NCBI GenBank assembly: GCA_028286905.1
Contig: JAQBQP010000002.1
Coordinates: 56,971-120,970, forward strand
DNA length: 64,000 bases
Origin: Candidatus Doudnabacteria bacterium
Lineage (GTDB): Bacteria; Patescibacteriota; Doudnabacteria; UBA920; VMFF01
Direction of reading: 5' to 3'
The notes under the pieces were generated by a model. The model worked only from the letters and a program-made list of their open reading frames with translations. It was not told the origin of the DNA and did no database searches. Shown here one piece after another: positions 4,336 to 63,336 of the stretch (positions within the stretch are counted from its first letter, which is position 1; each line of letters opens with the position of its first letter). Made by a program: the position numbers and the translations under genes.

Positions 4336-5622
4336 ATGAAGAAAAAAGCTAAGAAGGTGATGAAGCCTTTAAAAAAGCCTATCAAGAAAATTAAGAAAAT
4401 AAAAAAGGCTCCGGTTTCTAAAAAGAAAATCGCGCCAAAAAAAGCTGCTTCAACAAAAGTAAAAAAGAGTTTGATGAAAAAAGTCACTGAAGAGACTTCT
4501 TTTGAGCATGTCGCCGAAGTAAAAAAAGCCGTTGATTACTTGTTGTCTAAGGGGTCGGACCGCGGTTTTGTAACGGAAGCTGAAATTTTGCATGCTTTGC
4601 CGAACTTTGAATCTGATGTTAGCTCTTTGGAATCAGTTATGGATGAATTGGATAAGCGCGGAATTGAGATAGTTGACCCAGAAGTTGCTAGTATTTGGCA
4701 GCCTCAAGATGTACATACTGATGAAGCTCCAAAAACTACCAAGGGCCGCAAAAAGAAAGATGTGCCAGATAGCACTTACGATCTTGGTGATATTTATGAT
4801 GACTCAATTCAAATGTATTTGCGTGAAATTGGAAAAGTATCTTTGCTTTCTGGTGCAGAAGAAATTGAATTGGCAAAACGAATCGGAAAGGGCGACGTTG
4901 CAGCGCGCAAACGCTTAACTGAAGCAAACTTACGTTTAGTGGTTTCTATCGCAAAAAAATATATGGGTCGTAACTTGGGTTTGTTGGATTTAATCCAAGA
5001 AGGTAACTTGGGTTTGTTCCGCGCAGTTGATAAATTCGACTGGAGAAAAGGTTATAAATTTTCTACATACGCAACCTGGTGGATTCGTCAGGCGATCACT
5101 CGTGCTTTAGCTGACCAATCTAGAACGATTCGTATCCCGGTACACATGGTTGAAACTTTAAATAAATATGCTCAGGCTGAACGCCAGTTAGTTCAAGATT
5201 TAGGACGCGAACCATTGCCAGAAGAAATTGCCGCTGAAATGGGGATCGAAGTAGAAAAAGTCTATCATCTTAAGAAAATTTCCCAAGAAACAGTTTCGAT
5301 TGATTCGCCGGTAGGTGATGATAGCGATGAAGTTGAGTCTTCTCTTGGAGATTTCATTGTTGATGAAGATACTACAATGCCGCAAGAGGTTGCTGGTCGT
5401 CAGCTATTGAGAGAATACGTTCAGGAAATTTTACACGATTTAGACCCCCGCGAACAGAAAATTTTGAAAATGCGTTTCGGCTTAGAAGACGGCGTTACGC
5501 ATACTTTAGAAGAAGTAGGTGAAGAGTTTGGCGTAACTCGTGAACGTATCCGCCAAATTGAAGCTAAGGCCTTAGAAAGAATGAAAGAACATAGAAATAT
5601 TTCTAAGTTAAGAGACTACTAA
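4336..5622 (+). CDS. rpoD: RNA polymerase sigma factor RpoD (sigma-70) with Lys-rich N-terminal extension
   Basis: Region 1.2 ([16 protein letters not shown]), region 2 ([13 protein letters not shown]), region 4 ([23 protein letters not shown]). Confidence 0.92.
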
Positions 5623-27356: not shown

Positions 27357-27941
27357 ATGAAAATAAACCAATCGAATTTAATTTCAGAAAATACAGCTGA
27401 CCCGCAGTTGATTTTAGAAGCACAAAAAGAAAATCAGCTTGCACTTGAATTACTTGTAAAACGCTATATTGCTGATTCATACAGACTATCTTTGCAATAT
27501 TTAAAAACTCAGATCGATGCTGAAGACGCGGTTCAAGAGGTTTTTGTTAAAGTTTGGCGAAATATTAAAAAAGTTGATCCTGATAAAAATTTTAAAGCTT
27601 GGCTATTAGAAGTAACTAAAAATACCTGTTTAGATATTTTAAAGAAGAAAAAAGCTTTGCCATTTAGCGCATTTGAACTCGCTGATGGCAGTAATCCACT
27701 TGTAGATAATTTAATCTCGCCGCTAGCCTCACCATTAGAATTAGCAGAAACAGCCAGCTTGCAAGGGTTGATAAATAAGGCAAAAAGCAGCTTGCCAAAT
27801 AAATACAAAAATATTTTAGCCCTATATTACGAACAAGGATTAAATTTGCGAGAGATTTCAGAAGCTTTAAAAGTGCCAATCGATACGATTAAAAGTCAGC
27901 ACCGCAGAGCTTTAATAAGCTTAAAAAAGCTAATTCGTTAA
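27357..27941 (+). CDS. RNA polymerase sigma-70 factor, ECF subfamily
   Basis: Region 2 (DAVQEVFVKVWRNI...AWLLEVTKN) and region 4 HTH (LREISEALKVPIDTIKSQHRRALISLKK). Confidence 0.8.
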   Translation: MKINQSNLISENTADPQLILEAQKENQLALELLVKRYIADSYRLSLQYLKTQIDAEDAVQEVFVKVWRNIKKVDPDKNFKAWLLEVTKNTCLDILKKKKALPFSAFELADGSNPLVDNLISPLASPLELAETASLQGLINKAKSSLPNKYKNILALYYEQGLNLREISEALKVPIDTIKSQHRRALISLKKLIR

Positions 27942-27964
27942 TAAATATTTAATTGCTTAGTGTT

Positions 27965-27992
27965 AGGATGCACCCAGGTGCATCCTTTTTTC
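27965..27992 (+). terminator. Rho-independent terminator (GGATGCACC...GGTGCATCC-TTTTTT)
   Basis: Perfect stem plus T-run. Confidence 0.55.
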
Positions 27993-28004
27993 GTATAGAT
28001 ATGT

Positions 28005-28364
28005 ATGAGAGAAGAATTAGTAGAACAAGTTTTGTACCGGATTGAACACGAGCGCCAGTTAAAGGCTGCCCGTATTCGTCTATTTGTTTCAGTTTTGTCT
28101 TTTTTTGGTTTATTGATCCTAGCGGTGCCTACGTGGCAAATGACCCGAACAGACATAATCAATTCTGGATTCGGTCAACAATTCAACCTAATGTTCTATG
28201 ATTTTAGAAACATTTTAAATTATTGGCAAGATTTTAGTGTTGGTTTAATGGAAGAATTGCCGGTTTTAAGCGTAGTTCAATTCTTAGCGGTTTTAGCAGG
28301 CCTGGTTTTTGCCTTGAAAGTAATCTTTAAGAATGGAAAGGTTTTCATAAAGTATGAAATTTAA
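28005..28364 (+). CDS. Putative anti-sigma factor / membrane protein (2 TM)
   Basis: Sits immediately downstream of the ECF sigma; two hydrophobic segments; no catalytic motifs. Confidence 0.35.
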   Translation: MREELVEQVLYRIEHERQLKAARIRLFVSVLSFFGLLILAVPTWQMTRTDIINSGFGQQFNLMFYDFRNILNYWQDFSVGLMEELPVLSVVQFLAVLAGLVFALKVIFKNGKVFIKYEI

Positions 28365-28800
28365 TTTTGAAGGTAAGCATTTTTGGAGAATTCTGATCGG
28401 ATTAGGTACGATAATAATTTTGCTTTTGGTTTTTCAATTAGGTATGTATATCGGTTTTCGCAAAGCTAATTTTTCTTATCGCTGGGGTGAAAATTATCAC
28501 AAGACTTTTGGTGGACCAAGTATTAGCATGATCGATAATTTTCAAGGTAGGGATTTGGTCAACGGACATGGAATTACAGGAATCGTCGCGAAGGTTGAAA
28601 ACGGTGCAATTATAATGAAAGATCCGAATGGTGTGGAAAAAATCTTGAACATCACACCGCAAACCTTGTTAAAAAGAGGATCGGATACAATTACAATTAC
28701 CGATGTCAAAATAGATGATCGTTTGGTAGTTGTCGGCTCGCCAAAAAATGATGGAACAATTGATGCTGAAATAATTAGAGACTTTTATGGAAAAAATTAA
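28354..28800 (+). CDS. Membrane-anchored hypothetical protein (DUF5666-like beta domain)
   Basis: N-terminal TM; C-terminal G.V..V....I.L...G..V.V.G pattern. Confidence 0.4.
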   Translation: MKFNFEGKHFWRILIGLGTIIILLLVFQLGMYIGFRKANFSYRWGENYHKTFGGPSISMIDNFQGRDLVNGHGITGIVAKVENGAIIMKDPNGVEKILNITPQTLLKRGSDTITITDVKIDDRLVVVGSPKNDGTIDAEIIRDFYGKN

Positions 28801-30472
28801 ATTACTATTACGTAAAAAAAGTGTTTGGGCAGTAATCGCAATTATAGTGATTGGCGGAGGCTATTATTATAATAAAACTTCGGCGAAGCTGACTCCTGTT
28901 CGTTATGTTACCGCAGCGGTTCAGACCGGAACAATAACTTCTTCAGTAACTGGAACCGGGCAAGTCGCGGTTTCAGATCAAGTCGATGTTAAGCCCCAGG
29001 GGTCCGGCACAGTTACCTCGGTAAGAGTGCATCAAGGTGATCAGGTTAAAGCTGGTCAAGTAATTGCTACGGTTGATGCTCAAAGCGCAGTTAATCAGAT
29101 TAACCAGGCAAAGGTTACTTTGATGCAAGCCCAGGCAAATTACGATAAAGTTATTGCTGGCGCTACGAATACGGATTTAGCAACTGCAAAGCTTTCATTA
29201 CAGTCAGCGCAGCAAGCCGTGGACAATGCCAAAAACTCTTATGATACTAGCGTATCTCAGCAAAAAGTTAATGTAGCGAATGCCCAGTCGGCAATGTTCA
29301 ACGCCGGTCTAACTGCTTTGCCCGGAGTAGGTAACACCAGCACTGCTACTTTTACGGTAAGCGGCACCTATACCAGTACGGATCCAATCGAATATAAAAT
29401 AAACTTCTCTAGCACAGGCGGAGGTATTTATTATAATGTTTCTTCTGCTTCCGATGGCTCAAATGGATTTTTAAATCGTGGAGTGCCCGCACCATTAGGA
29501 ACTCGGGGATTGTATTTTACCATTAGCACCACCGGTACTTTATCAGGCAGTGACTATTGGACAATCGATTTACCAAACACCCAATCATCTAGCTATTTGA
29601 ACGCTTACAATTCGTATCAAGCTGCGTTGCAAACTCAGATTCAAGCAACTACTCAGGCAAATAATGCAATTCAATCGGCTCAAAATAACTTAGCTCAAGC
29701 GCAGATTAATTTTGATGCTAAAGTTGCGCCTGCAACTCAACCAGATCTATTAGCAGCTCAATCTCAAATTGAATCAGCAAAGGTTCAGTTGGCAAATGCC
29801 AATACCGCTTATCAAAATACTTTAGTTACGGCTCCTTTTGACGGTATTATTGCAAAACTTACAATTCAAAAAGGAGACCAAGCAAGCAACGCCACTGCCG
29901 CGGCAACGGTGATAACAAAACAGAAAATTGCACAAGTTACTTTGAATGAAGTTGATGTTGCTAAAGTGAAGATTGGACAAAAAGCTACTTTAACTTTCCC
30001 CGCAGTTGACGGCTTAACAATTACCGGCGATGTTGGTGAAGTTGATTCGCTTGGAACCGTAACTCAAAACGTTGTAAATTTTAGCATGAAAATTTTATTT
30101 GACACTCAAGATGACCGAGTAAAACCAGGAATGAGCGTTTCCGCTGCAATTATCACTGATGTTAAACAAGACGTCTTGACCGTCCCTTCTGCTGCTGTAA
30201 AAGGCAGTGGAGACACAGCTTACGTGGAAACGTTAGTTAACGGCGGTCCCGAACAACATTCAGTAACAGTAGGTATTTCCAGCGACACGGACACCGAAAT
30301 TTCCGGAGATATTAAAGAAGGCGATCAAGTAATTACCCAAACGATTAGTGCATCAAGCAGTACTGCAAAACCTGCCGCTTCCTCAGGTAATATTTTACAA
30401 AGTTTAGGCGGGAGTGGGGCAACGGGCGCACGAAGAACCACCGGCGCAGCAACCGGAGGCTTTGGCAAATGA
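28787..30472 (+). CDS. Efflux periplasmic adaptor subunit (HlyD/MacA family), extended
   Basis: N-terminal TM, long coiled-coil hairpin, lipoyl/barrel-like segments, Ser/Gly-rich tail. Confidence 0.7.
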   Translation: MEKIKLLLRKKSVWAVIAIIVIGGGYYYNKTSAKLTPVRYVTAAVQTGTITSSVTGTGQVAVSDQVDVKPQGSGTVTSVRVHQGDQVKAGQVIATVDAQSAVNQINQAKVTLMQAQANYDKVIAGATNTDLATAKLSLQSAQQAVDNAKNSYDTSVSQQKVNVANAQSAMFNAGLTALPGVGNTSTATFTVSGTYTSTDPIEYKINFSSTGGGIYYNVSSASDGSNGFLNRGVPAPLGTRGLYFTISTTGTLSGSDYWTIDLPNTQSSSYLNAYNSYQAALQTQIQATTQANNAIQSAQNNLAQAQINFDAKVAPATQPDLLAAQSQIESAKVQLANANTAYQNTLVTAPFDGIIAKLTIQKGDQASNATAAATVITKQKIAQVTLNEVDVAKVKIGQKATLTFPAVDGLTITGDVGEVDSLGTVTQNVVNFSMKILFDTQDDRVKPGMSVSAAIITDVKQDVLTVPSAAVKGSGDTAYVETLVNGGPEQHSVTVGISSDTDTEISGDIKEGDQVITQTISASSSTAKPAASSGNILQSLGGSGATGARRTTGAATGGFGK

Positions 30473-31149
30473 TCGAATGCAACAACTTAACTAAAACTTA
30501 TATCAATGGTGACGACACTACTGTGGTTTTGAAGGGAATTTCTTTTAAGATCGAAACAGGTGAATTCGTTGCAATAATGGGTCCGTCCGGAAGTGGTAAG
30601 TCCACCTTGATGCATATTTTAGGAGCGTTAGACACTCCCACTACTGGTAGCTATTTTTTGGACGGTAAAGATGTTTCGAAGCTTAGCGATTACGAGCTTG
30701 CCGAAATTAGAAAAGAGAAAATTGGTTTTGTTTTTCAAGCTTTTAATTTGTTGCCGCGTGCCACTGTATTAAGAAATGTTGCCTTGCCGCTAGTTTATGC
30801 CGAAGTACCAAAGGAAAAAAGGGAAGTGATCGCTAAAGAAGCCTTGGTCCGAGCTGGTATGGATGAGTCTAGATTCAATCATTTATCGAACCAGCTTTCT
30901 GGAGGACAGATGCAACGTGTCGCGATAGCACGAGCTTTAGTAAATAATCCAAGTTTAATTTTGGCGGATGAACCGACTGGAAATTTGGACACCAAAACCG
31001 GAGAAATAGTCTTAGCAACATTTCAATCACTAAGCGAACAAGGCTCAACCATTGTTTTAATTACACATGAACCGGAAGTTGCCAAATATGCCCAACGAAT
31101 TATTCATATCCGAGATGGTTTAATTTTAAAAGATGAACGGATTCGTTAA
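30469..31149 (+). CDS. ABC transporter ATP-binding protein (MacB/LolD/FtsE type)
   Basis: Walker [10 protein letters not shown], signature [15 protein letters not shown], Walker [12 protein letters not shown]. Confidence 0.85.
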
Positions 31150-31160
31150 GGTAAAACATT

Positions 31161-32384
31161 ATGAAAATAAACGATCTATTTCAAGAAACATTTGCAGCAG
31201 TAACAGCAAACAAAGTTCGCTCCGGATTAACAATGCTTGGAATTGTAATTGGGATCGGTTCAGTTATTGCTATGGTTTCAATTGGGCAAGGCGCACAAAA
31301 TTCTGTTCAGTCTAGCATTCAATCAATTGGCTCAAACTTAATTTTGGTAACGCCGGGCGTGCAGAAGGGGCCGGGAGCAAATATAAGCGCCGGGCGTGGC
31401 TCAGCAACGAACTTAACCCAGCTTGATGCTGACGCGATAAAATCCACCGTTACAGGTATTAAAGCAATTGCACCAGAGCAATCTCGAAGATATCAGGTCA
31501 CTGCTAAAGGTACAAATACTAATACTCAGGTAACGGGTACCACTCCAGATTATTTGGAAGTTCGAAATGTTCAGGTCGACCAAGGGGCGTTTTTTGCAAC
31601 ATCTCAATTACAAAGCTTAGCTAAAGTGGCAGTAATCGGGCCAACTACTCGCGATGACTTGTTTGGTGTAGACGCTAACCCGGTTGGACAAACAATTAGA
31701 ATTAATAATTTGGAATTCAAAGTAATCGGTATGACTGTTGCAAAAGGGGGTAGTGGCTTTTCAAATGCTGATGATGCCATTTATATTCCTTTGCAAACAG
31801 CACAAAGGTTTCTAGCAGGCAGTGATAGCGTCTCGACCATAAGCGTTGAAGCGCAGGACGCCAATTCGATGGCAGATATTCAGCAGCAAATTACTGACTT
31901 ATTGCTGCAAAGACATAAAATTTCTGATCCGGCCGCTGCCGACTTTAGCGTTTTAAATCAGGCAGACATTGTTGCTACCGCCTCCAGCGTTACCGGAATT
32001 TTCACAATGCTGCTGGCGTCAATCGCAGGGATATCTTTGTTAGTTGGCGGAATCGGAATTATGAACATGATGCTAACAACAGTAACGGAACGCACTCGTG
32101 AAATTGGCTTGCGCAAAGCAATTGGTGCGCAAAAAAAAGATATTTCCTTGCAGTTTTTAGCTGAGGCAGTAGTTCTAACTTTCTTGGGAGGCGTACTTGG
32201 AGTGTTGTTAGGTTGGTTAATTTCTTTAGCAGTTTCGCACTTTGCATCAATAGCAACTAAGGTCTCTTTGGGTTCCGTGCTTTTAGCGTTCGGAGTTTCC
32301 GCGGGGATCGGAATAGTATTTGGCTATTATCCAGCAAGTCGAGCGGCGGGATTAAATCCAATTGAGGCTTTGCGTTACGAATAA
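31161..32384 (+). CDS. ABC transporter permease (MacB-like FtsX domain)
   Basis: N-terminal TM, large periplasmic domain, C-terminal 3-TM FtsX region (LRKAIGAQKKDI...). Confidence 0.8.
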   Translation: MKINDLFQETFAAVTANKVRSGLTMLGIVIGIGSVIAMVSIGQGAQNSVQSSIQSIGSNLILVTPGVQKGPGANISAGRGSATNLTQLDADAIKSTVTGIKAIAPEQSRRYQVTAKGTNTNTQVTGTTPDYLEVRNVQVDQGAFFATSQLQSLAKVAVIGPTTRDDLFGVDANPVGQTIRINNLEFKVIGMTVAKGGSGFSNADDAIYIPLQTAQRFLAGSDSVSTISVEAQDANSMADIQQQITDLLLQRHKISDPAAADFSVLNQADIVATASSVTGIFTMLLASIAGISLLVGGIGIMNMMLTTVTERTREIGLRKAIGAQKKDISLQFLAEAVVLTFLGGVLGVLLGWLISLAVSHFASIATKVSLGSVLLAFGVSAGIGIVFGYYPASRAAGLNPIEALRYE

Positions 32385-32401
32385 TAATTAAAATAATAAG
32401 T

Positions 32402-32899
32402 ATGACTAATAAAAATATTGGTTTAAGTGTAGTAACAGTTTTAGTAATTGCAGCAATTGGTTTTTTTGGCGGGATGAAATATGGATCTGCACATGCCTTG
32501 TCTGCAAAATCTCTGGCTAGCTTAAGCACTGCTCAAAAACAGTTGCTAACTCAAAATCTTCGCGGTGGTGGGATGGCTGGTAATGCTGGAGCTGGTGGAG
32601 CAATGGGCTTTGCGGGGCGCAGAACCGGAACAGGTGGGGCCGCTGGCTCAGGGTTTACAGCAGGAAATATAATTAGCAAAGATGATAAAAGTATAACCGT
32701 TTCCACAACTGGCGGTGGTTCAAAAATAATTTTTGTTTCTGGTACTACTAAGGTTGGTAAAAGCGTAACCGGTGCAGTTTCCGATTTGGCAGTAGGCGAC
32801 CAGGTAACCATTACCGGTGCCGCAAATTCAGACGGCAGTATTAACGCAGCATCAGTAGATATTCGCCCTGCTAACACTGTTCCATCAACAGGTAAATAA
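32402..32899 (+). CDS. Secreted Gly/Ala-rich hypothetical protein
   Basis: Signal/TM N-terminus; GGGMAGNAGAGGAMGFAG low-complexity stretch. Confidence 0.45.
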   Translation: MTNKNIGLSVVTVLVIAAIGFFGGMKYGSAHALSAKSLASLSTAQKQLLTQNLRGGGMAGNAGAGGAMGFAGRRTGTGGAAGSGFTAGNIISKDDKSITVSTTGGGSKIIFVSGTTKVGKSVTGAVSDLAVGDQVTITGAANSDGSINAASVDIRPANTVPSTGK

Positions 32900-32985
32900 T
32901 TGACCGGCAGTAGGTTTTCTGTTACTCTGCCTAATTAGAATAGGCAGGGGGATCAATAATAAAAACCTTTTCGCGGGGAGCGAAA

Positions 32986-33795
32986 ATGAATAATCAGGAA
33001 CTCGGAGCGTCTGTGGAATGGTTGTACGGCTTAGGGTTATCAGTCAAAGAGATTCGTAAAATTTTGGCAGAATTACCTGGGCTAAAAAAGGTCTCGATAA
33101 CGGCGGTGCGAGAGCATCTAGCTGACGAGTTCGGTAGCCAGAAACACTTTCCAAATCGCCCTAGAACGGCGGAACTGAGCTATGCGCGAGTGTTCGGGGA
33201 ATATGCGGCTACGATTGGTGCTGCCGATCATGTTTCGCCGTTGGTACCCTGGCAATTTCGTAGGCTGATGCTTCTGAGGTATTTGGTTCCGGATGGTGAC
33301 GAAGTTTTAACCGGCGCCGGAATGTTGAAGACGTTGGTGTACGATCCGCCGTATCCGCCGGGCTATCTCAGTCTGTTGAGTGCAGTGTTCCAAGCCAATT
33401 ATGGGTTGGAATTTTCCTCAGACCGGATCACAGGGCCATACGTACATGCAGTTATCGAAGGCGGTATCGCGACACCGAAAAACTATCAGGAATTTCTGAT
33501 CAGTGCGCTGCAACATGCCGCGGAACAGATTCGGCTTAATCCTCCGAGGTGGCCGCCACTGAAGCAGGTAGACAATGCGATTTCTCGTACGCCGATGATG
33601 CCTGCGGAGCGGAAAGCGCTTCGATATTATTACGGGATCCAGGGAAAATCGGCAAAAAGCGAAGACGAGATCGCGGAGCTGATTCAAAGACCTGCGAGCC
33701 AGGTACGAGAATATGTTAAGAAAGCAGTCGCTCATCTCAGTGAGACTGGGGGAGCGCTTGGATTGTTGCTGTACCAACACCTGTCTGTGCTTTAG
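32986..33795 (+). CDS. Hypothetical regulator with C-terminal sigma-70 region-4-like HTH, in a G+C-rich island
   Basis: C-terminal ERKALRYYYGIQGKSAKSEDEIAELIQRPASQVREYVKKAV resembles sigma region 4; composition is visibly more GC-rich than the flanks. Confidence 0.5.
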   Translation: MNNQELGASVEWLYGLGLSVKEIRKILAELPGLKKVSITAVREHLADEFGSQKHFPNRPRTAELSYARVFGEYAATIGAADHVSPLVPWQFRRLMLLRYLVPDGDEVLTGAGMLKTLVYDPPYPPGYLSLLSAVFQANYGLEFSSDRITGPYVHAVIEGGIATPKNYQEFLISALQHAAEQIRLNPPRWPPLKQVDNAISRTPMMPAERKALRYYYGIQGKSAKSEDEIAELIQRPASQVREYVKKAVAHLSETGGALGLLLYQHLSVL

Positions 33796-33826
33796 CCGAC
33801 TCGGTTGAAGAGGTTTTTCTAAAACA

Positions 33827-33863
33827 AAAGACCGTGAAAAGAAATTTTCGCGGTCTTTGTTTT
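33827..33863. terminator. Bidirectional terminator (AAGACCG...CGGTCTT)
   Basis: Imperfect long stem flanked by A- and T-runs between convergent genes. Confidence 0.5.
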
Positions 33864-33874
33864 GTTAAGAGTGT

Positions 33875-34504
33875 TTACTTATCGAGCAGAGTTAAATCTT
33901 TAACAAAGAGGTGTTTGTTAATTTCGTGAATTGAATAAGTTATAAAAAAAGCGGCAAATACATCAATTGAATAATGGAGGTGGCCTAGTAAGACTGCTGC
34001 GCCAAGCAGTACCGAAGAAATCAAGAAGGTAATGCGTAGTTTTTTATTTTCCCAATATATTAAAGCCATTAAAAATGGCAGGCCAGTGTGTCCGGAAAAA
34101 AATAAATCCCCGCCAAAGCTAAACTCTTCCATAATCTTTGAGCTGGAAAGATAGTCAGGATGTAAGCCCAAATGCGTTAAACTAAAGAAAAATGATCTAA
34201 TTAGTATAAAAACAGCTACGCTTTTCGTAACAAATGGAATTCTTTTCGGCTCAATAAATATCAGTCCGACGCTAAATAGAATTAAGATTAATGCGCCCCA
34301 GACGAAAATAATCGTAACATTAACAACGGGCAGGTTGTCTAAAATTAAATCACTGCTTGGACTACTTTGTTTAGTAGTCGCATAACTTGCTGCAAAATAA
34401 TATAACAATAAACTAAGTAATAAAAAAAAGATTCCAAAAATGCTTGATTGGCGGTAGTTTTTATCTGCCCAAAGCTCTTTATATTTTTGAGCGAGGTTAG
34501 TCAT
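33875..34504 (-). CDS. PAP2-superfamily membrane phosphatase-like protein
   Basis: FSGHTG and H..D (HLHYSIDV) elements resemble PAP2 motifs; 5-6 TM segments. Confidence 0.45.
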   Translation of the reverse strand: MTNLAQKYKELWADKNYRQSSIFGIFFLLLSLLLYYFAASYATTKQSSPSSDLILDNLPVVNVTIIFVWGALILILFSVGLIFIEPKRIPFVTKSVAVFILIRSFFFSLTHLGLHPDYLSSSKIMEEFSFGGDLFFSGHTGLPFLMALIYWENKKLRITFLISSVLLGAAVLLGHLHYSIDVFAAFFITYSIHEINKHLFVKDLTLLDK

Positions 34505-35432
34505 TGTCTTGAATAGAGAAAATGTTGAAGGAGGAATGTGTTGCCGCTCTGGTCGTGGTAGGTTTAAGTTCTTGAAATGTAGCGGTGCTTAGAGCTCCGG
34601 CAAAAAGAATCATTAATATTGCAGCGCAAACTGTCCACATTGTAGTAGTAGCAAGAAAAACCTTTCTAACATTGGTTCGAAAGATTGGTGTGGCTTCATG
34701 TCTGACGTCGACGTAGTTAGTATGAAAAGGTTTTTTGAAAAAAATTGTCCAAAAATAATTGATCGGATATTTTATTCCCATTGTTAGCAAGCCTTCTTTT
34801 TTTAACCTGCGTCCGGAAGAATACATTGGAAGCTTAAAGGTAAATTTTACTCCGCCTATCGGACGTAATCTTCTGGCGATGTCGGTATCTTCTCCATAAA
34901 AATTTATCGAAAGATTGTAGCCGTTAATTTTTTCCAACGCTGAACGATGGACGATATAATTTCCACCTTGCAACAAAGAGCCAACCCTTAATACAAATCT
35001 ATTGTTTATATAACTGATATAGCCGAGGTAGTAATAAAATCGCACTAAAACATTGTTTAATAGAGAAAGGTCATAATAAATAAAGGGTCCGCTTAGGGCA
35101 ACTAATTTTTTGTTTGCTGCAAACTCTGACAAAACTGTGTCAATCCATCCAGGAGTTAATATTGAATCAGCATCCACATTAGCAATTAACTCGCCTGAAG
35201 AGGCATCGAAGCCGGCTTGACGGGCAAAGAGCAGTCCCTTGCGAGATTCGCGAATAACTCTTACGCCCTGATAAGACTCAGCCACAGAGTGGGTGGTATC
35301 AGTGCTGGCATTGTTTACAACAATAATCTCAGTAAGGTGGCTAGTGGTTTGTGTTTCTCTTAAAATGCTTTCCAGACATCTGGGTAAGTAAGCTTCTTCA
35401 TTGTACGCTGGAACTACAAAGGATATTTTCAT
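34497..35432 (-). CDS. Family 2 glycosyltransferase
   Basis: KISFVVPAYNEEAYL, DxD, C-terminal TM. Confidence 0.75.
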   Translation of the reverse strand: MKISFVVPAYNEEAYLPRCLESILRETQTTSHLTEIIVVNNASTDTTHSVAESYQGVRVIRESRKGLLFARQAGFDASSGELIANVDADSILTPGWIDTVLSEFAANKKLVALSGPFIYYDLSLLNNVLVRFYYYLGYISYINNRFVLRVGSLLQGGNYIVHRSALEKINGYNLSINFYGEDTDIARRLRPIGGVKFTFKLPMYSSGRRLKKEGLLTMGIKYPINYFWTIFFKKPFHTNYVDVRHEATPIFRTNVRKVFLATTTMWTVCAAILMILFAGALSTATFQELKPTTTRAATHSSFNIFSIQDND

Positions 35433-35433
35433 A

Positions 35434-36156
35434 TTATCTGATCACTGACCATTCTTTGCTGTAGGATTTTTTAAAAGCCTTAACATAAATTAGGTTAATC
35501 ACCCACAAATATAAAAGTTTTGGCCAACCAATTTTATGCGCTCTTCGGGAAGTGTGTAGGACGTGGAGGCTTGGTTCGCTTCGAACGGTTCCAATTTTGG
35601 CGAGCTTTGCAAACATGTCATTGTCTTCGCCAATAACCATGCCAATATCGTAGCCGTTAACTTTTTTAAACGCTTCTGTTCGAATCATTTGAAATTCGCC
35701 CGCTGCTGCGCCAGTTTTCAAGAGGTTGTTGGAAATTTGAATTGTCCGGTTAATGAATGCAAAGAAAAAATTATCTGCCCAGGTGGCGTTTTCTTTATGC
35801 ACTCTTAAAAAAACCGTAAGACCAATTAGATCTGAGTTTTGCTCAAATAATTTTAGCGCTTTGGGAATAAAGGAATTTATTTCCGGTATCGTAATATCTG
35901 CATCTAAGAAAAGTAATAAATCTCCTGAGGCCGCTTCTGCACCAGAATTTTTACCTTCACCGATTTTCTGTCTGGTTTTTCCATCATGAACAATTACTTT
36001 ATGAGCATGCTTTTTAGCAATCTCAATCGTTTGGTCAGTGCTGAGCCCATCGGCAACGATTAACTCATAATCGACATCGGCCAATTCTTTTAAAGAACCC
36101 AGGGTATTCTCTAAAATTTTTTCTTCATTCAAAGTTGGGATGATAATTGAGAGCAT
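35434..36156 (-). CDS. Family 2 glycosyltransferase
   Basis: LSIIIPTLNEE, DADITI. Confidence 0.75.
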   Translation of the reverse strand: MLSIIIPTLNEEKILENTLGSLKELADVDYELIVADGLSTDQTIEIAKKHAHKVIVHDGKTRQKIGEGKNSGAEAASGDLLLFLDADITIPEINSFIPKALKLFEQNSDLIGLTVFLRVHKENATWADNFFFAFINRTIQISNNLLKTGAAAGEFQMIRTEAFKKVNGYDIGMVIGEDNDMFAKLAKIGTVRSEPSLHVLHTSRRAHKIGWPKLLYLWVINLIYVKAFKKSYSKEWSVIR

Positions 36157-36785
36157 TAAATTTCTTTTTTTGATAAGTATTTAATTAGTAAGCGCATTCC
36201 GATAAAGACAAAAGCTAAGATAAAAATGACAAACACTATTTTGTAGGGACCGACAAATTTTGTATAAACGTCTCCAAAAAAATATCCTATCGAGAGTAAG
36301 AAAGCGGTCCAGATAAAGCCGCCATACAAGTTAAGAATAGCATATTTCTTAAAAGGAACCCGAATCATGCCGGCTACAATCAGAGTTGCCACTGCGAAAC
36401 CGAAACCCATTGTAATTTTTGATATAAAAAGAATCTTATTTTGATAACGGTGGAAGCGATCTTCAATCTTAGCCAGTATTTCAGGCGTTATATGAAAAAA
36501 TCTACCAAATTTATCCACTAAGGGGCGCCCGCCATAGCGGCCTAAAGCGTACATCCCCAAATCTGCAGTAAAATCACCACTAACTAGAGTAAAATACAAC
36601 GGAATAAGTTGAAATTGCCCTAAACGGTACAGAAAACCGCTACTCATCATCAAAAGAGGGCCTTCGACCAGGCAGCCTAGAAACAGCAAAACATATTTGG
36701 AATGGTCAATAAAAGTGATCCAAACGGACAACGTAAGCATGCTTATATTATAGCAAGTATAAACATCCAGACAATGCTGCTTCAT
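36156..36785 (-). CDS. DedA/VTT-domain membrane protein
   Basis: EGPLLMMSSGFL...YFTLVSGDFTADLGMYALGRYGG is typical of the DedA core. Confidence 0.65.
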   Translation of the reverse strand: MKQHCLDVYTCYNISMLTLSVWITFIDHSKYVLLFLGCLVEGPLLMMSSGFLYRLGQFQLIPLYFTLVSGDFTADLGMYALGRYGGRPLVDKFGRFFHITPEILAKIEDRFHRYQNKILFISKITMGFGFAVATLIVAGMIRVPFKKYAILNLYGGFIWTAFLLSIGYFFGDVYTKFVGPYKIVFVIFILAFVFIGMRLLIKYLSKKEI

Positions 36786-42208: not shown

Positions 42209-43231
42209 GTGGTTACAATGAACATCGCGATTGGCCTGGCGTGCTTAGCGATGTCTATGACCTTGTTCGTGTTGGTCTGTAAGGCGCGCAAACTGCTGTT
42301 GTTCGCCTGGATCTATTTGGCTTTTGGTGTGTTTATATTTGGGGCAGGGATACATTTTGTCCTGATCTCCGCCAATTCCAAATGGAATCTGCAATGGCTT
42401 TCGATAACGGTAGACCTAATGACGATGCTGGCAGCAGTGGCTATCGCCTTAGTTTTCCCGGCTGTTTTGCCAAAGGTGATCAAAATCCTTGGCGAAGCGC
42501 ATCTTTCCTTGGAAAGGAAAGTTGCTTTGGAGGCTGCAAGAAAGGCGGCTCGGCAAAAAACTGATTTCATGGCGATGATGTCCCACGAACTCAGAACGCC
42601 TTTGAACAGCATCGTCGGCTTTTGTTCTTTGATCGAAGATCAGCACTATGGGCCGGTCACCGAAGAGCAACGGATCGCGTTAGTGCGGATAAAGGATAGC
42701 TCCAGCCACTTAGTGAAGCTGGTCAGACAGATTCTTGACTACAATGGTCAGGAGCGAGCTGACTGGGAAGAGGTGGAGCTTGTGACTTTTTGCAAAACAG
42801 TCCTGGCAATGTTTGATCCGTTGCTTGGCAAGTACACTGTGTGTCTCGAGGTGGAGCTGCCCGAGGTGCCTTACCAGGTTTGGACTGATACGAAAAAACT
42901 TCGGCAGGTTATCACCAATCTGCTGCAGAATGCTTTCAAGTTCACCGAGCATGGCTCCGTTGGGTTTAGGGTCAGTTGTGTGGACGGGTTGGTATCGATT
43001 GAGGTCAGCGATACCGGAATCGGAATCAGTAAGGAAAATCTTGCCAAAATTTTTGATCCGTTTTGGCAAGTCGATAGGAGGAACATGCGCGCTGAAGCTG
43101 GCGCAGGGCTGGGACTAAGCATTACCCAACGCTTTGTGGAAATTCTTCAAGGCGATATCAAGGCACAAAGTGTGCTCGGAAAGGGTACGAAGTTCACAGT
43201 TCTTCTACCTCAAGCGCCGGATAAGGCTTGA
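42209..43231 (+). CDS. Orphan sensor histidine kinase with 4-TM N-terminal sensor, in a G+C-rich island
   Basis: H-box MSHELRTPLNSI; N/G boxes (QNAFKFT, DTGIGIS, GAGLGLSI); composition conspicuously GC-rich; may start at the internal Met (MNIAIG). Confidence 0.75.
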   Translation: MVTMNIAIGLACLAMSMTLFVLVCKARKLLLFAWIYLAFGVFIFGAGIHFVLISANSKWNLQWLSITVDLMTMLAAVAIALVFPAVLPKVIKILGEAHLSLERKVALEAARKAARQKTDFMAMMSHELRTPLNSIVGFCSLIEDQHYGPVTEEQRIALVRIKDSSSHLVKLVRQILDYNGQERADWEEVELVTFCKTVLAMFDPLLGKYTVCLEVELPEVPYQVWTDTKKLRQVITNLLQNAFKFTEHGSVGFRVSCVDGLVSIEVSDTGIGISKENLAKIFDPFWQVDRRNMRAEAGAGLGLSITQRFVEILQGDIKAQSVLGKGTKFTVLLPQAPDKA

Positions 43232-60003: not shown

Positions 60004-60453
60004 ATGAAACTCTATTCCCGTAGAGACTCTACACCAGATCTGTTGCACAAATTAGTTCACGCAATGGACCGTTCGGCGGATGTAATACTCCAAAAACAAT
60101 TCGGTATTACCTACAAGCGCGCCTATTTCTTACTCGTCCTTCAGAGGGTCGGAACAGTGACTCAGCATCAGTTAGCGGTTGTACTGGGGTATAGCGCTGC
60201 TTCGGTGAGTACGATGCTAACCGCGCTTTCAAAATTAGGATACGTTGATATTCAGCCAAGCCCACACCATGGGCGGAAAAAGCTGGTGTCTCTCACTCCG
60301 TACGGCAAGGAACTGGTTACGAAAGGCCGAAATATGCTTAATGCACACTTCGCTAGTCTTATGCTCGGTGAGCACATGAATATCCAAGAATATTATGCCC
60401 AGACAGAGCGGTTATACTCAGCCGTAGTTGCAAAAAATAAGGAGCAAAAATGA
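60004..60453 (+). CDS. MarR-family transcriptional regulator
   Basis: Winged HTH (QHQLAVVLGYSAASVSTMLTALSKLGYV). Confidence 0.75.
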   Translation: MKLYSRRDSTPDLLHKLVHAMDRSADVILQKQFGITYKRAYFLLVLQRVGTVTQHQLAVVLGYSAASVSTMLTALSKLGYVDIQPSPHHGRKKLVSLTPYGKELVTKGRNMLNAHFASLMLGEHMNIQEYYAQTERLYSAVVAKNKEQK

Positions 60454-61286
60454 CTCAGAGCTTTGAACAAAATAGCTTCGTGTCATTCGATGGAACGAGT
60501 CTATCATACGAAAAGATTGGAGCTGGCCCAGCTGTAATAGTTGTTCCCGGCGCACTTGAAGAAACTGAAAACTTTCGAGGTTTTGCAGAAGAGTTGTCAC
60601 ACTTATTTACCGTTCATACTCTTGATCGCCGCGGCCACGGGAAAAGTGACCCACAGGGTGAAGGCTACTCAATTAATAAGGAATGCCAAGATATCCGTAC
60701 CTTGCAAGATCTCACAAAGGCAAAGTACCTTTTTGCCCATAGTTTTGGCGGATTTGCAGTTCTCGAGACAGCACGGAACAACCCAGAACTTATGGGAGTT
60801 GCTGTTTATGAACCCGGCATTTCAATTGATGGTTCAATCAATGTCAGATGGGTCGATCGGTGTCTCACTGAGATTGCTGCCGGTAAACTACACGATGCGT
60901 TTACCACATTTGCCCAAGGGGTTAACCCTCGGTCGGCCCTGATGCCACGATGGATCTTTAAGCGAGTTTTACGTCTTGCGTTGAAGCCAGCCGAACTAGC
61001 CCAAAAGTATCGTTTGCTCGCAACAGCTATTCCTGAGCATCTCGAAGAAGCCCGTTTGAACAACACTTATCAGAATTATCAGGAAATTAACGCACCAGTA
61101 CTACTGATGCGGGGGACTGGCGGTGTAATGTCTAAGCCAGCACTGGCGAAGCTAGCTTCTGCGATAACCAACGTTAAGGTTACGGAGTTCAAAGGTCTTG
61201 ATCACTTTGGGCCGGAACAAAAACCCAAAATTGTGGCCAATGTTGTGGCGAATTTCTTCGCGCAGGCTGGGCGAAAGTTTTTGTAA
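60450..61286 (+). CDS. Alpha/beta hydrolase
   Basis: HSFGG nucleophile elbow; overlaps the MarR stop, suggesting an operon. Confidence 0.75.
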   Translation: MTQSFEQNSFVSFDGTSLSYEKIGAGPAVIVVPGALEETENFRGFAEELSHLFTVHTLDRRGHGKSDPQGEGYSINKECQDIRTLQDLTKAKYLFAHSFGGFAVLETARNNPELMGVAVYEPGISIDGSINVRWVDRCLTEIAAGKLHDAFTTFAQGVNPRSALMPRWIFKRVLRLALKPAELAQKYRLLATAIPEHLEEARLNNTYQNYQEINAPVLLMRGTGGVMSKPALAKLASAITNVKVTEFKGLDHFGPEQKPKIVANVVANFFAQAGRKFL

Positions 61287-62796: not shown

Positions 62797-63336
62797 CACG
62801 TATCCCTAAATTTCTCTAAGGGGTGGACTATATCATCATCCCACTTTTACTGGGATGCGAGGCGCTTCGGCCGATCTTCATCGGACTACTCCTTGCGGAT
62901 AGTCTCTGAACCTTCCCCAATTATAAGTCGGGGCTTGGCTGCTGATTGCCCCGAAGGGTTTCCAGCAATTCACCTCGTTTTTCCATCCTCAATTACTTGA
63001 AGAGGCTGCAATTAGACCGGCATGTATTTCTTTGTAACAGTTTGAGCAAATTAGAACGCATTTTTCTAACTCTTTTCGTGTTCTTTCCCACGATCGAGTC
63101 AGTCCACTAAGCGCAATTCCAAATTCTTTGGTTTTACGATCCAAGTGGTGAAATTCTAAAGCTGCTAGACATCTATCGTAGCACAGAGCTTGCACTTGCC
63201 GCCTTTTAAAGCGACGGCCATGGCTTTGATTTTCTTACGTCTCTTATCTACTGCCAGTTTGATATACTCTTTTCGGTCTGAATATTTTCTTTGTTCTTTC
63301 ATACTTTGATAGTATCAAAGAATTAGATGGTATTAC
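62797..63336 (-). mobile_element. Group I intron (self-splicing-type) inserted in the tRNA anticodon loop
   Basis: P7 strands ...GGTTCAGAGACTA... and ...TATAGTCCACC...; P9-like hairpin CCCTTAGAGAAATTTAGGG followed by ATACG (omega-G) directly before the 3' exon; internal HNH ORF; boundaries +/- 2 nt. Confidence 0.7.
62989..63301 (-). pseudogene. Intron-encoded HNH homing endonuclease, split by a frameshift (ATG at 63301; C-terminal part in another frame ending 62989)
   Basis: Frame 1: MKEQRKYSDRKEYIKLAVDKRRKKIKAMAVALKGGKCKLCATIDV*; frame +2 continues ...ALCYDRCLAALEFHHLDRKTKEFG...CVLICSNCYKEIH with HNH motifs (HH..D, CxxC...H). Confidence 0.6.

Follow-up and report, generated by a model that had tools for sequence, protein, structure and literature searches.

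A candidate single-gene foreign insertion encoding an orphan, putatively DNA-binding protein in a Candidatus Doudnabacteria genome

Introduction

Helix-turn-helix (HTH) domains of the kind found in region 4 of sigma-70 factors occur in proteins of several architectures. In the sigma-70 factors themselves the domain is C-terminal and is preceded by regions 2 and 3. Stand-alone regulators of the region-4/LuxR (GerE) type bind DNA through a region-4-like HTH but are not sigma factors, and two proteins recovered in our searches (P0006 and P0014) carry region-4 units in tandem. Acquired DNA, for its part, ranges from prophages, ICEs and classical genomic islands to single-gene genomic islets, or acquired ORFans.

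Here we describe a 269-residue protein encoded in a 64-kb stretch of DNA from a Candidatus Doudnabacteria genome (the window, by which we mean the whole stretch that was analysed). Residues ~206-253 of this protein run gap-free and in register with region 4 of the host RpoD, of ECF sigma factors from CPR genomes and of the tandem region-4 proteins. They share with sigma-70 region 4 the motif P-x-E-x-K-x-L ... YYG ... S-x-x-EIA ... V-R-x-x-x-x-KA-x-x-x-L, and the region-4-like domain is C-terminal, as it is in sigma-70 factors. By contrast with those factors, the protein has no regions 2 and 3, scores under the cutoffs of the sigma models, and matches nothing over the 200 residues that precede the domain. 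It differs from LuxR/GerE regulators in having no GerE/LuxR Pfam match and no receiver or ligand-binding domain. With P0006 and P0014 it has an ELYYGLxGQ..S..EIA unit in common, but it holds a single unit, the similarity spans ~35-47 residues, and the scores are inflated by the repeats.

The gene departs from its host in composition, as prophages, ICEs and classical genomic islands do; unlike them, it adjoins no mobility genes, tRNA or tmRNA. It resembles single-gene islets in its deviant G+C, codon and oligonucleotide usage, its orphan status, its position in an intergenic or terminator region and its absence in relatives, and differs from them in lacking an integrase and a tRNA and in having a direct repeat that is only marginal.

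Results

The ORF is a true protein-coding gene

The gene and the ribosome-binding sequence in front of it are located as follows.

32986-33795, plus strand: orphan protein-coding gene of 269 aa with an ATG start (ORF list of the 64-kb window)
32975-32980, plus strand: GGGGAG, Shine-Dalgarno-like, 5 nt 5' of the ATG (sequence reading)

The product is identical to MDB4939900.1, 'hypothetical protein JWO40_325', from a Candidatus Doudnabacteria MAG, in which it lies on a 540-kb contig. When the 810 nt were shuffled 20,000 times, no frame of any shuffle stayed stop-free for 269 codons, and the period-3 signal-to-noise ratio of the ORF is 6.5, compared with 0.99±0.58 in shuffles (~9.6 SD higher). 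Because these results coincide with the coding-type order GC1 > GC3 > GC2, we count the ORF as a true protein-coding gene. The product is predicted to be all-helical, with a pI of 8.6; an AF2 model of the whole protein reached a pLDDT of 42.7, too poor for use.

Base, codon and tetranucleotide composition depart from those of the host

The G+C content of the ORF is 0.511 (GC1 0.596, GC2 0.411, GC3 0.524-0.526), in agreement with the ~50% that a first-pass annotation of the window had estimated by eye, whereas the mean over the window's 64 long ORFs is 0.392±0.038, and 0.350±0.064 for GC3. A sliding-window check of G+C and tetranucleotides, suggested at the same first pass, placed the ORF at the top on both counts: the richest 810-nt stretch in the 64 kb is the one that covers it (0.517 versus 0.392±0.033, z ~3.8), and the tetranucleotide L1 distance of its stretch ranks first of 157 in the window (z = 5.1). 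Amino acid content alone does not explain the deviation, since simulation of the protein's own amino acid sequence with host codon usage gave an expected GC3 of 0.350±0.028 against the 0.524 observed (z = 6.3), and a Karlin codon bias of 0.280±0.033 against 0.458 for the ORF.

The limits of the deviant stretch were placed by maximum-likelihood change points.

33101-33813, no strand assigned: G+C-rich island, G+C 0.529 versus 0.433 to the left and 0.359 to the right

With these best-fit boundaries, the earlier description of G+C-rich codons throughout the ORF does not extend to codons 1-38, whose G+C of 0.41 is host-like, although the difference in GC3 between these codons and the remainder is not significant (P = 0.38). 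In codons 39-269 all three positions are shifted jointly, with GC1/GC2/GC3 of 0.62/0.43/0.54 versus 0.48/0.36/0.34 in the host. The flanks had been described as mid-30s % G+C; this is true of the right flank (0.34-0.39) but not of the left, where the MacAB cassette and a Gly-rich gene reach 0.43-0.46. Values of ~0.6/0.42/0.53 at the three codon positions are the output of a ~50% G+C genome under the Muto-Osawa relationships. The composition of the ORF in bases, codons and tetranucleotides is thus that of a ~50-53% G+C genome, not that of its 39% G+C host.

As a positive control we used the second compositional outlier of the window, a histidine kinase gene at 42209-43231 (G+C 0.494, codon bias 0.499). 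The named relatives closest to this kinase all lie outside the CPR and share ≤ 45% identity with it; they belong to Dehalococcoidia, Gemmatimonadaceae, Elusimicrobiota, delta-proteobacterial lineages and methanogens. By contrast, the PAP2 gene downstream of the ORF, which has host composition, has 5,430 homologs, the named ones of which are from Patescibacteria only. This difference in relatives indicates that raised G+C marks foreign ancestry in this genome.

The product has no detectable homolog in the collections searched

Among ~15 billion proteins, the sole match to the product was itself, MDB4939900.1, and a word-indexed search of 5.8 billion clusters likewise returned nothing else. An exhaustive phmmer search of 1.84 billion representatives added 16 further proteins, every one a repeat protein. 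In these matches, mTERF-repeat proteins align with residues 6-40 four to eleven times each, and a HEAT-repeat protein (P0004) and the two tandem region-4 proteins align with residues ~191-250 five to eight times. Because their E-values sum many scores of ~6-10 bits, we read them as reflecting local structure, namely helical hairpins, and not homology; kinship with the HEAT-repeat protein, as with the other repeat matches, was rejected as an artefact of repeat-inflated scoring.

Searches for the ORF in JGI metagenome contigs, IMG/VR, INPHARED phages and PLSDB plasmids (by tblastn for phages and plasmids) were all empty, and no PHROGs family or PADLOC entry matches the product. On these empty results we rejected the readings as a phage gene (PHROGs, IMG/VR, INPHARED), a plasmid gene (plasmid search) and a defence-system gene (PADLOC). 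A PDB sequence search gave designed helical repeats and noise only, with no sigma chain, and a literature search on the orphan gene gave nothing specific. By sequence comparison, then, the product is without a detectable homolog in the collections searched.

A probable region-4-type HTH at the C-terminus

The first-pass annotation had noted that the C-terminus of the product resembles sigma-70 region 4. The relevant segment, and the host gene with which it was compared, are located as follows.

33601-33744, plus strand: predicted sigma-70 region-4-type HTH (region 4.1 helix and region 4.2 HTH), residues 206-253 (profile matches, below threshold)
4336-5622, same window: host RpoD gene

Five sigma models (PF04545, PF08281, TIGR02937, TIGR02846 and TIGR02997) match residues ~195-253 through the C-terminal ends of their profiles, all with scores far under their curated cutoffs. 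The best of them is TIGR02937 (E 0.0045, 16.6 bits versus a cutoff of 42.9; profile positions 111-163 of 165); PF08281 gave E 0.075 and 13.1 bits (cutoff 25.7), and PF04545 gave E 0.11 and 12.5 bits (cutoff 24.1). In BLASTP, residues 206-253 align gap-free with residues 371-418 of the host RpoD, its Pfam region 4, at E 0.014. A profile built from single region-4 units of P0006 and P0014 scored the ORF at 23.8 bits against a shuffle maximum of 6.1, a test that is biased because both proteins had been chosen for their likeness to the query. A profile free of this bias, made from 55 ECF sigma factors of related CPR loci, placed residues 227-252 in register on the region 4.2 HTH at 4.5 bits, a score reached by 3 of 3,000 shuffles (P ~0.001). 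Both shuffle comparisons favour a match that is not random. The AF2 helices at residues 206-253 fit region-4 topology; structure-based fold searches with the product did not confirm a region-4 fold. The resemblance is therefore consistent and in register but lies below every curated threshold, and we consider it likely that a region-4-type HTH is present at the C-terminus.

Further sigma-factor domains were sought in the rest of the protein. Pfam gave no Sigma70_r2 (PF04542) or r3 match at E ≤ 10, a region-2 profile from the 55 CPR ECF sigma factors scored -0.4 bits, in the wrong place, and in BLASTP the host RpoD and ECF sigma factor aligned with the protein over region 4 only. Because these tests show region 2, the part that serves core binding and -10 recognition, to be absent, membership of the sigma-70 family was rejected and the product is not to be classed as a sigma factor.

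The N-terminus contains a second helical segment.

33001-33105, plus strand: predicted helical hairpin or HTH-like unit, LGASVEWLYGLGLSVKEIRKILAELPGLKKVSITA, residues 6-40, of host-like composition

As the first-pass annotation had stated, the N-terminus belongs to no obvious family: none was found in Pfam or NCBIfam, the matches on residues 6-40 being weak ones to DEK_C and MerR-DNA-bind (E ~0.03). These residues are 38-45% identical to single units of the mTERF-repeat proteins (PF02536) P0002, P0003 and P0005. An mTERF fold requires ~30-aa motifs in tandem, of which the ORF has only one, and PF02536 does not match the ORF at E ≤ 10. The mTERF E-values are sums over 4-11 repeats at ~6-7 bits each (for example, 73 bits over 11 repeats), and mTERF homology of the N-terminus was ruled out as repeat-inflated scoring; judged from sequence, the likeness is most likely a chance resemblance between helical hairpins. 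A BLASTP fragment shared with the ECF sigma factor had raised the idea of a second region-4 domain at the N-terminus, which the unbiased ECF profile did not support (-1.7 bits, P 0.07).

The gene lies just past the end of a module that recurs among CPR bacteria

Directly upstream of the ORF, and outside the G+C-rich island, lies a seven-gene CPR module (27357-32899, plus strand; Pfam and tblastn); a block of envelope genes converges on the ORF from downstream.

27357-27941, plus strand: ECF sigma factor (Pfam)
28005-28364, plus strand: small membrane ORF (ORF119)
28354-28800, plus strand: 148-aa ORF (ORF148)
28787-30472, plus strand: HlyD-like membrane-fusion protein (MacA; Pfam)
30469-31149, plus strand: ABC ATPase (MacB; Pfam)
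31161-32384, plus strand: MacB-type permease (MacB_PCD+FtsX; Pfam)
32402-32899, plus strand: Gly-rich 165-aa protein
33875-36785, minus strand: convergent envelope block of PAP2_C (209 aa), GT2 (311 aa), GT2 (240 aa) and DedA/VTT (209 aa), host composition

Pfam thus bore out both neighbours named at first pass, a MacAB efflux cluster (HlyD-like membrane-fusion protein, ABC ATPase, MacB_PCD+FtsX) on one side and a convergent envelope block (PAP2_C, two GT2, DedA/VTT) on the other. Searched with the permease, the GTDB species genomes yielded 80 loci of distant CPR bacteria at 61-72% identity, in which the other genes were sought by tblastn. All 80 contain the permease, 77 also the ATPase, 72 macA and 69 the Gly-rich gene; in 53 of the 72 with macA, an ECF sigma factor lies upstream of it. 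None of the 80 loci that carry the module contains the 269-aa ORF (tblastn).

In three of these loci (L004, L039 and L055), PAP2/GT2/DedA homologs trail the module as well, co-directionally and in differing orders, and in L004 the PAP2 homolog begins 35 nt past the Gly-rich gene. From these layouts, the neighbourhood recurs without strict synteny, and the ORF sits in a junction that is contiguous elsewhere. A simple inversion of the downstream block was ruled out, as gene order differs among L004, L039, L055 and the window. The genome has no close relative in the databases (best non-self PAP2 57%, best MacB 72% identity), and for this reason the insertion is not polarisable against a sister genome.

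Neither an integrase, a transposase, a phage gene nor a tRNA lies ≤10 kb to either side of the ORF, and Pfam on all genes of 21.9-44.2 kb returned no mobility or phage genes. The sole tRNA of the window, a tRNA-Ser at 2423-2512, is ~30 kb away. Together with the empty PHROGs, PADLOC, IMG/VR, INPHARED and PLSDB searches, these results lend no support to the suggestion, made at first pass, of a phage or ICE remnant. The horizontal acquisition proposed alongside it is instead supported, in that composition is clearly deviant, with a foreign signature at all three codon positions, and no homolog was found at any position in any related genome.

Hairpins and short repeats frame the ORF

The non-coding sequence on either side of the ORF contains the following elements.

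32927-32947, no strand assigned: perfect 7-bp palindrome CTGCCTA-N7-TAGGCAG, extendable to a 9-bp stem, single occurrence in the window
32968-32986, no strand assigned: hairpin TTTTCGC-GGGGA-GCGAAAA, which encloses the Shine-Dalgarno sequence and ends at the A of the start codon
32968-32976, plus strand: left copy of the 9-mer TTTTCGCGG, part of the Shine-Dalgarno hairpin
33827-33858, no strand assigned: bidirectional intrinsic terminator common to the ORF and the convergent PAP2-like gene, 14-pair stem with A-run and T-run flanks
33845-33853, plus strand: right copy of TTTTCGCGG, in the 3' arm of the terminator

The terminator, called strong at first pass, proved to be so on both strands, with a fold z of -4.4 on the plus strand and about -3.7 on the minus strand. 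Upstream, the 91-nt leader of the ORF has a fold z of -2.95. The palindrome at 32927-32947, 28 nt 3' of the stop codon of the Gly-rich gene, could be either an end-of-module hairpin or a candidate operator. The hairpin at 32968-32986 is terminator-like on the minus strand, where it is followed by a T-run and there is no gene to terminate; it may act in translational occlusion or may be a relic minus-strand terminator.

The two copies of the 9-mer TTTTCGCGG that flank the ORF are the only ones in the 64 kb; their P of ~0.02 by flank shuffling is overstated because it was computed post hoc. The pair is suggestive of a possible target-site duplication or duplicated terminator arm, and, taken with the stranded minus-strand hairpin, fits insertion into an older convergent terminator region, a fit that is only suggestive. 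A 12-nt imperfect inverted repeat (I10) around the ORF is not significant (P 0.059). An integron cassette, brought to mind by an orphan ORF with a hairpin behind it, was rejected by eye, since this hairpin, flanked by an A-run and a T-run, has the textbook form of a bidirectional terminator, good R''/R' (RYYYAAC/GTTRRRY) boxes are lacking and no integrase is nearby.

Discussion

The account we favour, with a confidence somewhat better than even, is a single-gene foreign insertion of ~0.8 kb that brought in an intact orphan gene for a putative DNA-binding regulator. The gene would have come by horizontal transfer from an unsampled donor of ~50% G+C, either a cell or a mobile element or virus of that cell. 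Little amelioration is the one basis on which we infer that the transfer was relatively recent in evolutionary terms. The ORF would be translated from its own Shine-Dalgarno sequence and end at the terminator it has in common with the convergent PAP2 gene, and the hairpin over the Shine-Dalgarno sequence and start codon may limit its translation. The C-terminal sigma-70 region-4/LuxR-type HTH (residues ~206-253) is proposed to bind DNA, possibly aided by the N-terminal helical hairpin (residues 6-40), and the product would act as an ordinary stand-alone transcription regulator, not as a sigma factor. A role as transcription factor is suggested by a single weak HTH in the predicted protein.

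Two of the alternatives accept the foreign origin of the ORF and differ on what it does. It might have been left behind or carried in by a small mobile element or virus that inserted in the terminator region between the convergent genes and duplicated a 9-bp target, TTTTCGCGG, in which case the product would be the element's own DNA-binding protein (a transposase DNA-binding module, excisionase, small-terminase-like protein or late-gene activator) and not a host regulator. Mobile DNA typically contains orphan genes of deviant composition, both the 9-mer and the 12-nt inverted repeat flank the ORF, the minus-strand hairpin is stranded 5' of it as if an older terminator region had been split, and there is a faint Transposase_mut match (E 0.069). 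We nevertheless think this account unlikely, given that the inverted repeat falls short of significance and the 9-mer probability is post hoc, that no catalytic domain, integrase, transposase or second element gene is present within 10 kb, and that PHROGs, PADLOC, IMG/VR and the tblastn searches of phages and plasmids all returned nothing. Alternatively, the ORF could be functionless foreign DNA, unexpressed or decaying, whose likeness to an HTH is a leftover or arose by chance. It is a single copy in one genome without conservation, promoter matches are weak, the Shine-Dalgarno sequence and start codon are buried in a hairpin, and the HTH evidence is below threshold. The AT-biased mutation of the host would soon make stops in such a sequence, yet the 269-codon frame is intact, with a strong period-3 signal and a good Shine-Dalgarno sequence, and functionlessness too we regard as unlikely.

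It is improbable that the product is a divergent alternative or virus-type sigma factor whose region 2 has changed beyond recognition and which binds the RNAP core and directs it to new promoters. The position of region 4 at the extreme C-terminus, the length of 269 aa (typical of group-3 sigma factors), the all-helical prediction and the three NCBIfam matches, all three to sigma models aligned at their C-terminal ends, would be expected of such a factor; the missing Sigma70_r2/r3 matches at E ≤ 10, the misplaced -0.4-bit hit of the ECF region-2 profile, the BLASTP alignments to host RpoD and ECF sigma factor confined to region 4, and the lack of a PDB sigma chain all speak against it. A shade more improbable still is that the protein mimics or appropriates sigma, docking on the RNAP beta-flap or on -35 elements, as the first sampled member of an undescribed group of region-4-bearing factors that would stem from a CPR virus or mobile element not yet sampled; the adjacent regulon of ECF sigma factor and MacAB module is one possible target. 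An assembly or binning artefact, in which a fragment of a higher-G+C organism was chimerically joined into the contig, would explain why a sequence from a MAG is on record in a single contig only. It would need two chimeric joins ~0.8 kb apart that exactly frame an intact ORF with its Shine-Dalgarno sequence and common terminator; the genes to either side are genuine CPR genes, the contig is 540 kb long, and the intergenic flanks and first 38 codons grade into host composition, which makes an artefact very improbable. In an AT-rich genome, a G+C-rich island is classically a sign of structured RNA, and the fold z for 32900-33870 is -3.0, but this span takes in the leader and terminator hairpins and no Rfam family comes near its gathering score for the ORF region (gathering and E-value thresholds). 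A structured non-coding RNA or G+C-rich DNA element with a chance ORF is effectively refuted by a reading frame longer than those of all 20,000 shuffles, a period-3 signal ~9.6 SD above them and the order GC1 > GC3 > GC2.

If the single-gene insertion is the true account, the locus is a clean, well-bounded case of a reduced CPR genome gaining one gene horizontally, the donor being absent from public data so far. Compositional outliers in such genomes would mark foreign genes, as the histidine kinase control supports. The event is ordinary in kind, and, short of relatives or expression data coming to light, the gene would be one more orphan HTH protein that opens no long-standing question. If the protein is instead a sigma mimic, transcription would be re-programmed in a bacterium with a minimal genome. 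Perhaps more useful is a by-product of the comparison, the module of ECF sigma factor, MacAB and Gly-rich protein that recurs in 53-69 of 80 CPR loci across many lineages.

Gene content and conservation of the MacAB locus

The first-pass annotation placed a MacAB efflux cluster beside the G+C-rich orphan ORF (32986-33795, +). MacA-like MFP and MacB genes do lie there, but they belong to a larger unit that recurs across CPR lineages:

27357-32899, seven-gene module, found in the window and in loci L001-L080; recurrent in many CPR lineages

The gene order is ECF sigma, a small membrane ORF that is anti-sigma-like, a 148-aa ORF, the MacA-like MFP, the MacB ATPase, the MacB permease and a secreted Gly-rich protein of 165 aa, for which Pfam gave no family. 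Among the CPR loci collected by scanning GTDB species genomes with the MacB permease, this permease is 61-72% identical between module loci; of 72 loci, 53 have an ECF sigma gene upstream of macA. A downstream Gly-rich gene is present in 69 of 80.

Sequences flanking and within the orphan ORF

The 9-mer TTTTCGCGG is confined to the two flanks of the orphan ORF (32968-32976 and 33845-33853). Its left copy belongs to a hairpin (32968-32986) that buries both the Shine-Dalgarno-like sequence and the start codon of the ORF, and on the minus strand this hairpin looks like an orphan terminator. Reading of the encoded protein also reveals a proline-rich, PPxY-like motif, PPYPPGY, in the middle region, for which there is no family assignment (aa 100-130; 33283-33375), a resemblance that may well be due to chance.

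Other G+C-rich regions

Raised G+C content is also observed elsewhere in the window:

42209-43231, +, histidine kinase, the window's second outlier in composition, with G+C 0.494 and a codon bias of 0.499
60004-61286, +, MarR-family regulator and alpha/beta hydrolase pair; G+C 0.46-0.47
1855-2420, G+C-rich stretch between a 313-aa ORF and tRNA-Ser
1929-2291, −, 120-aa ORF inside that stretch; G+C 0.50, GC3 0.61

The kinase combines an ethylene-receptor-like ETR1_N membrane domain with HisKA and HATPase domains, adjoins a gene for a UbiA-family prenyltransferase, and has its closest named relatives outside the CPR. The deposited protein (P0138, ‘pleC 2’, 270 aa) spans just 79% of this ORF and is without the ETR1_N part. 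The G+C-rich stretch matched nothing in Rfam at E ≤ 1, and its 120-aa ORF had no match in Pfam. The MarR/hydrolase pair may be a further foreign islet.

A group I intron

Two overlapping features were found on the minus strand, distant from the rRNA 3′ end (1-464):

62804-63110, −, group I intron, matching Rfam RF00028 at 87.7 bits
62989-63195, −, 68-aa ORF overlapping the intron

ARAGORN detected no tRNA at the intron. The overlapping ORF carries an HNH-like motif, EFHHLD...CSNCYKEIH.
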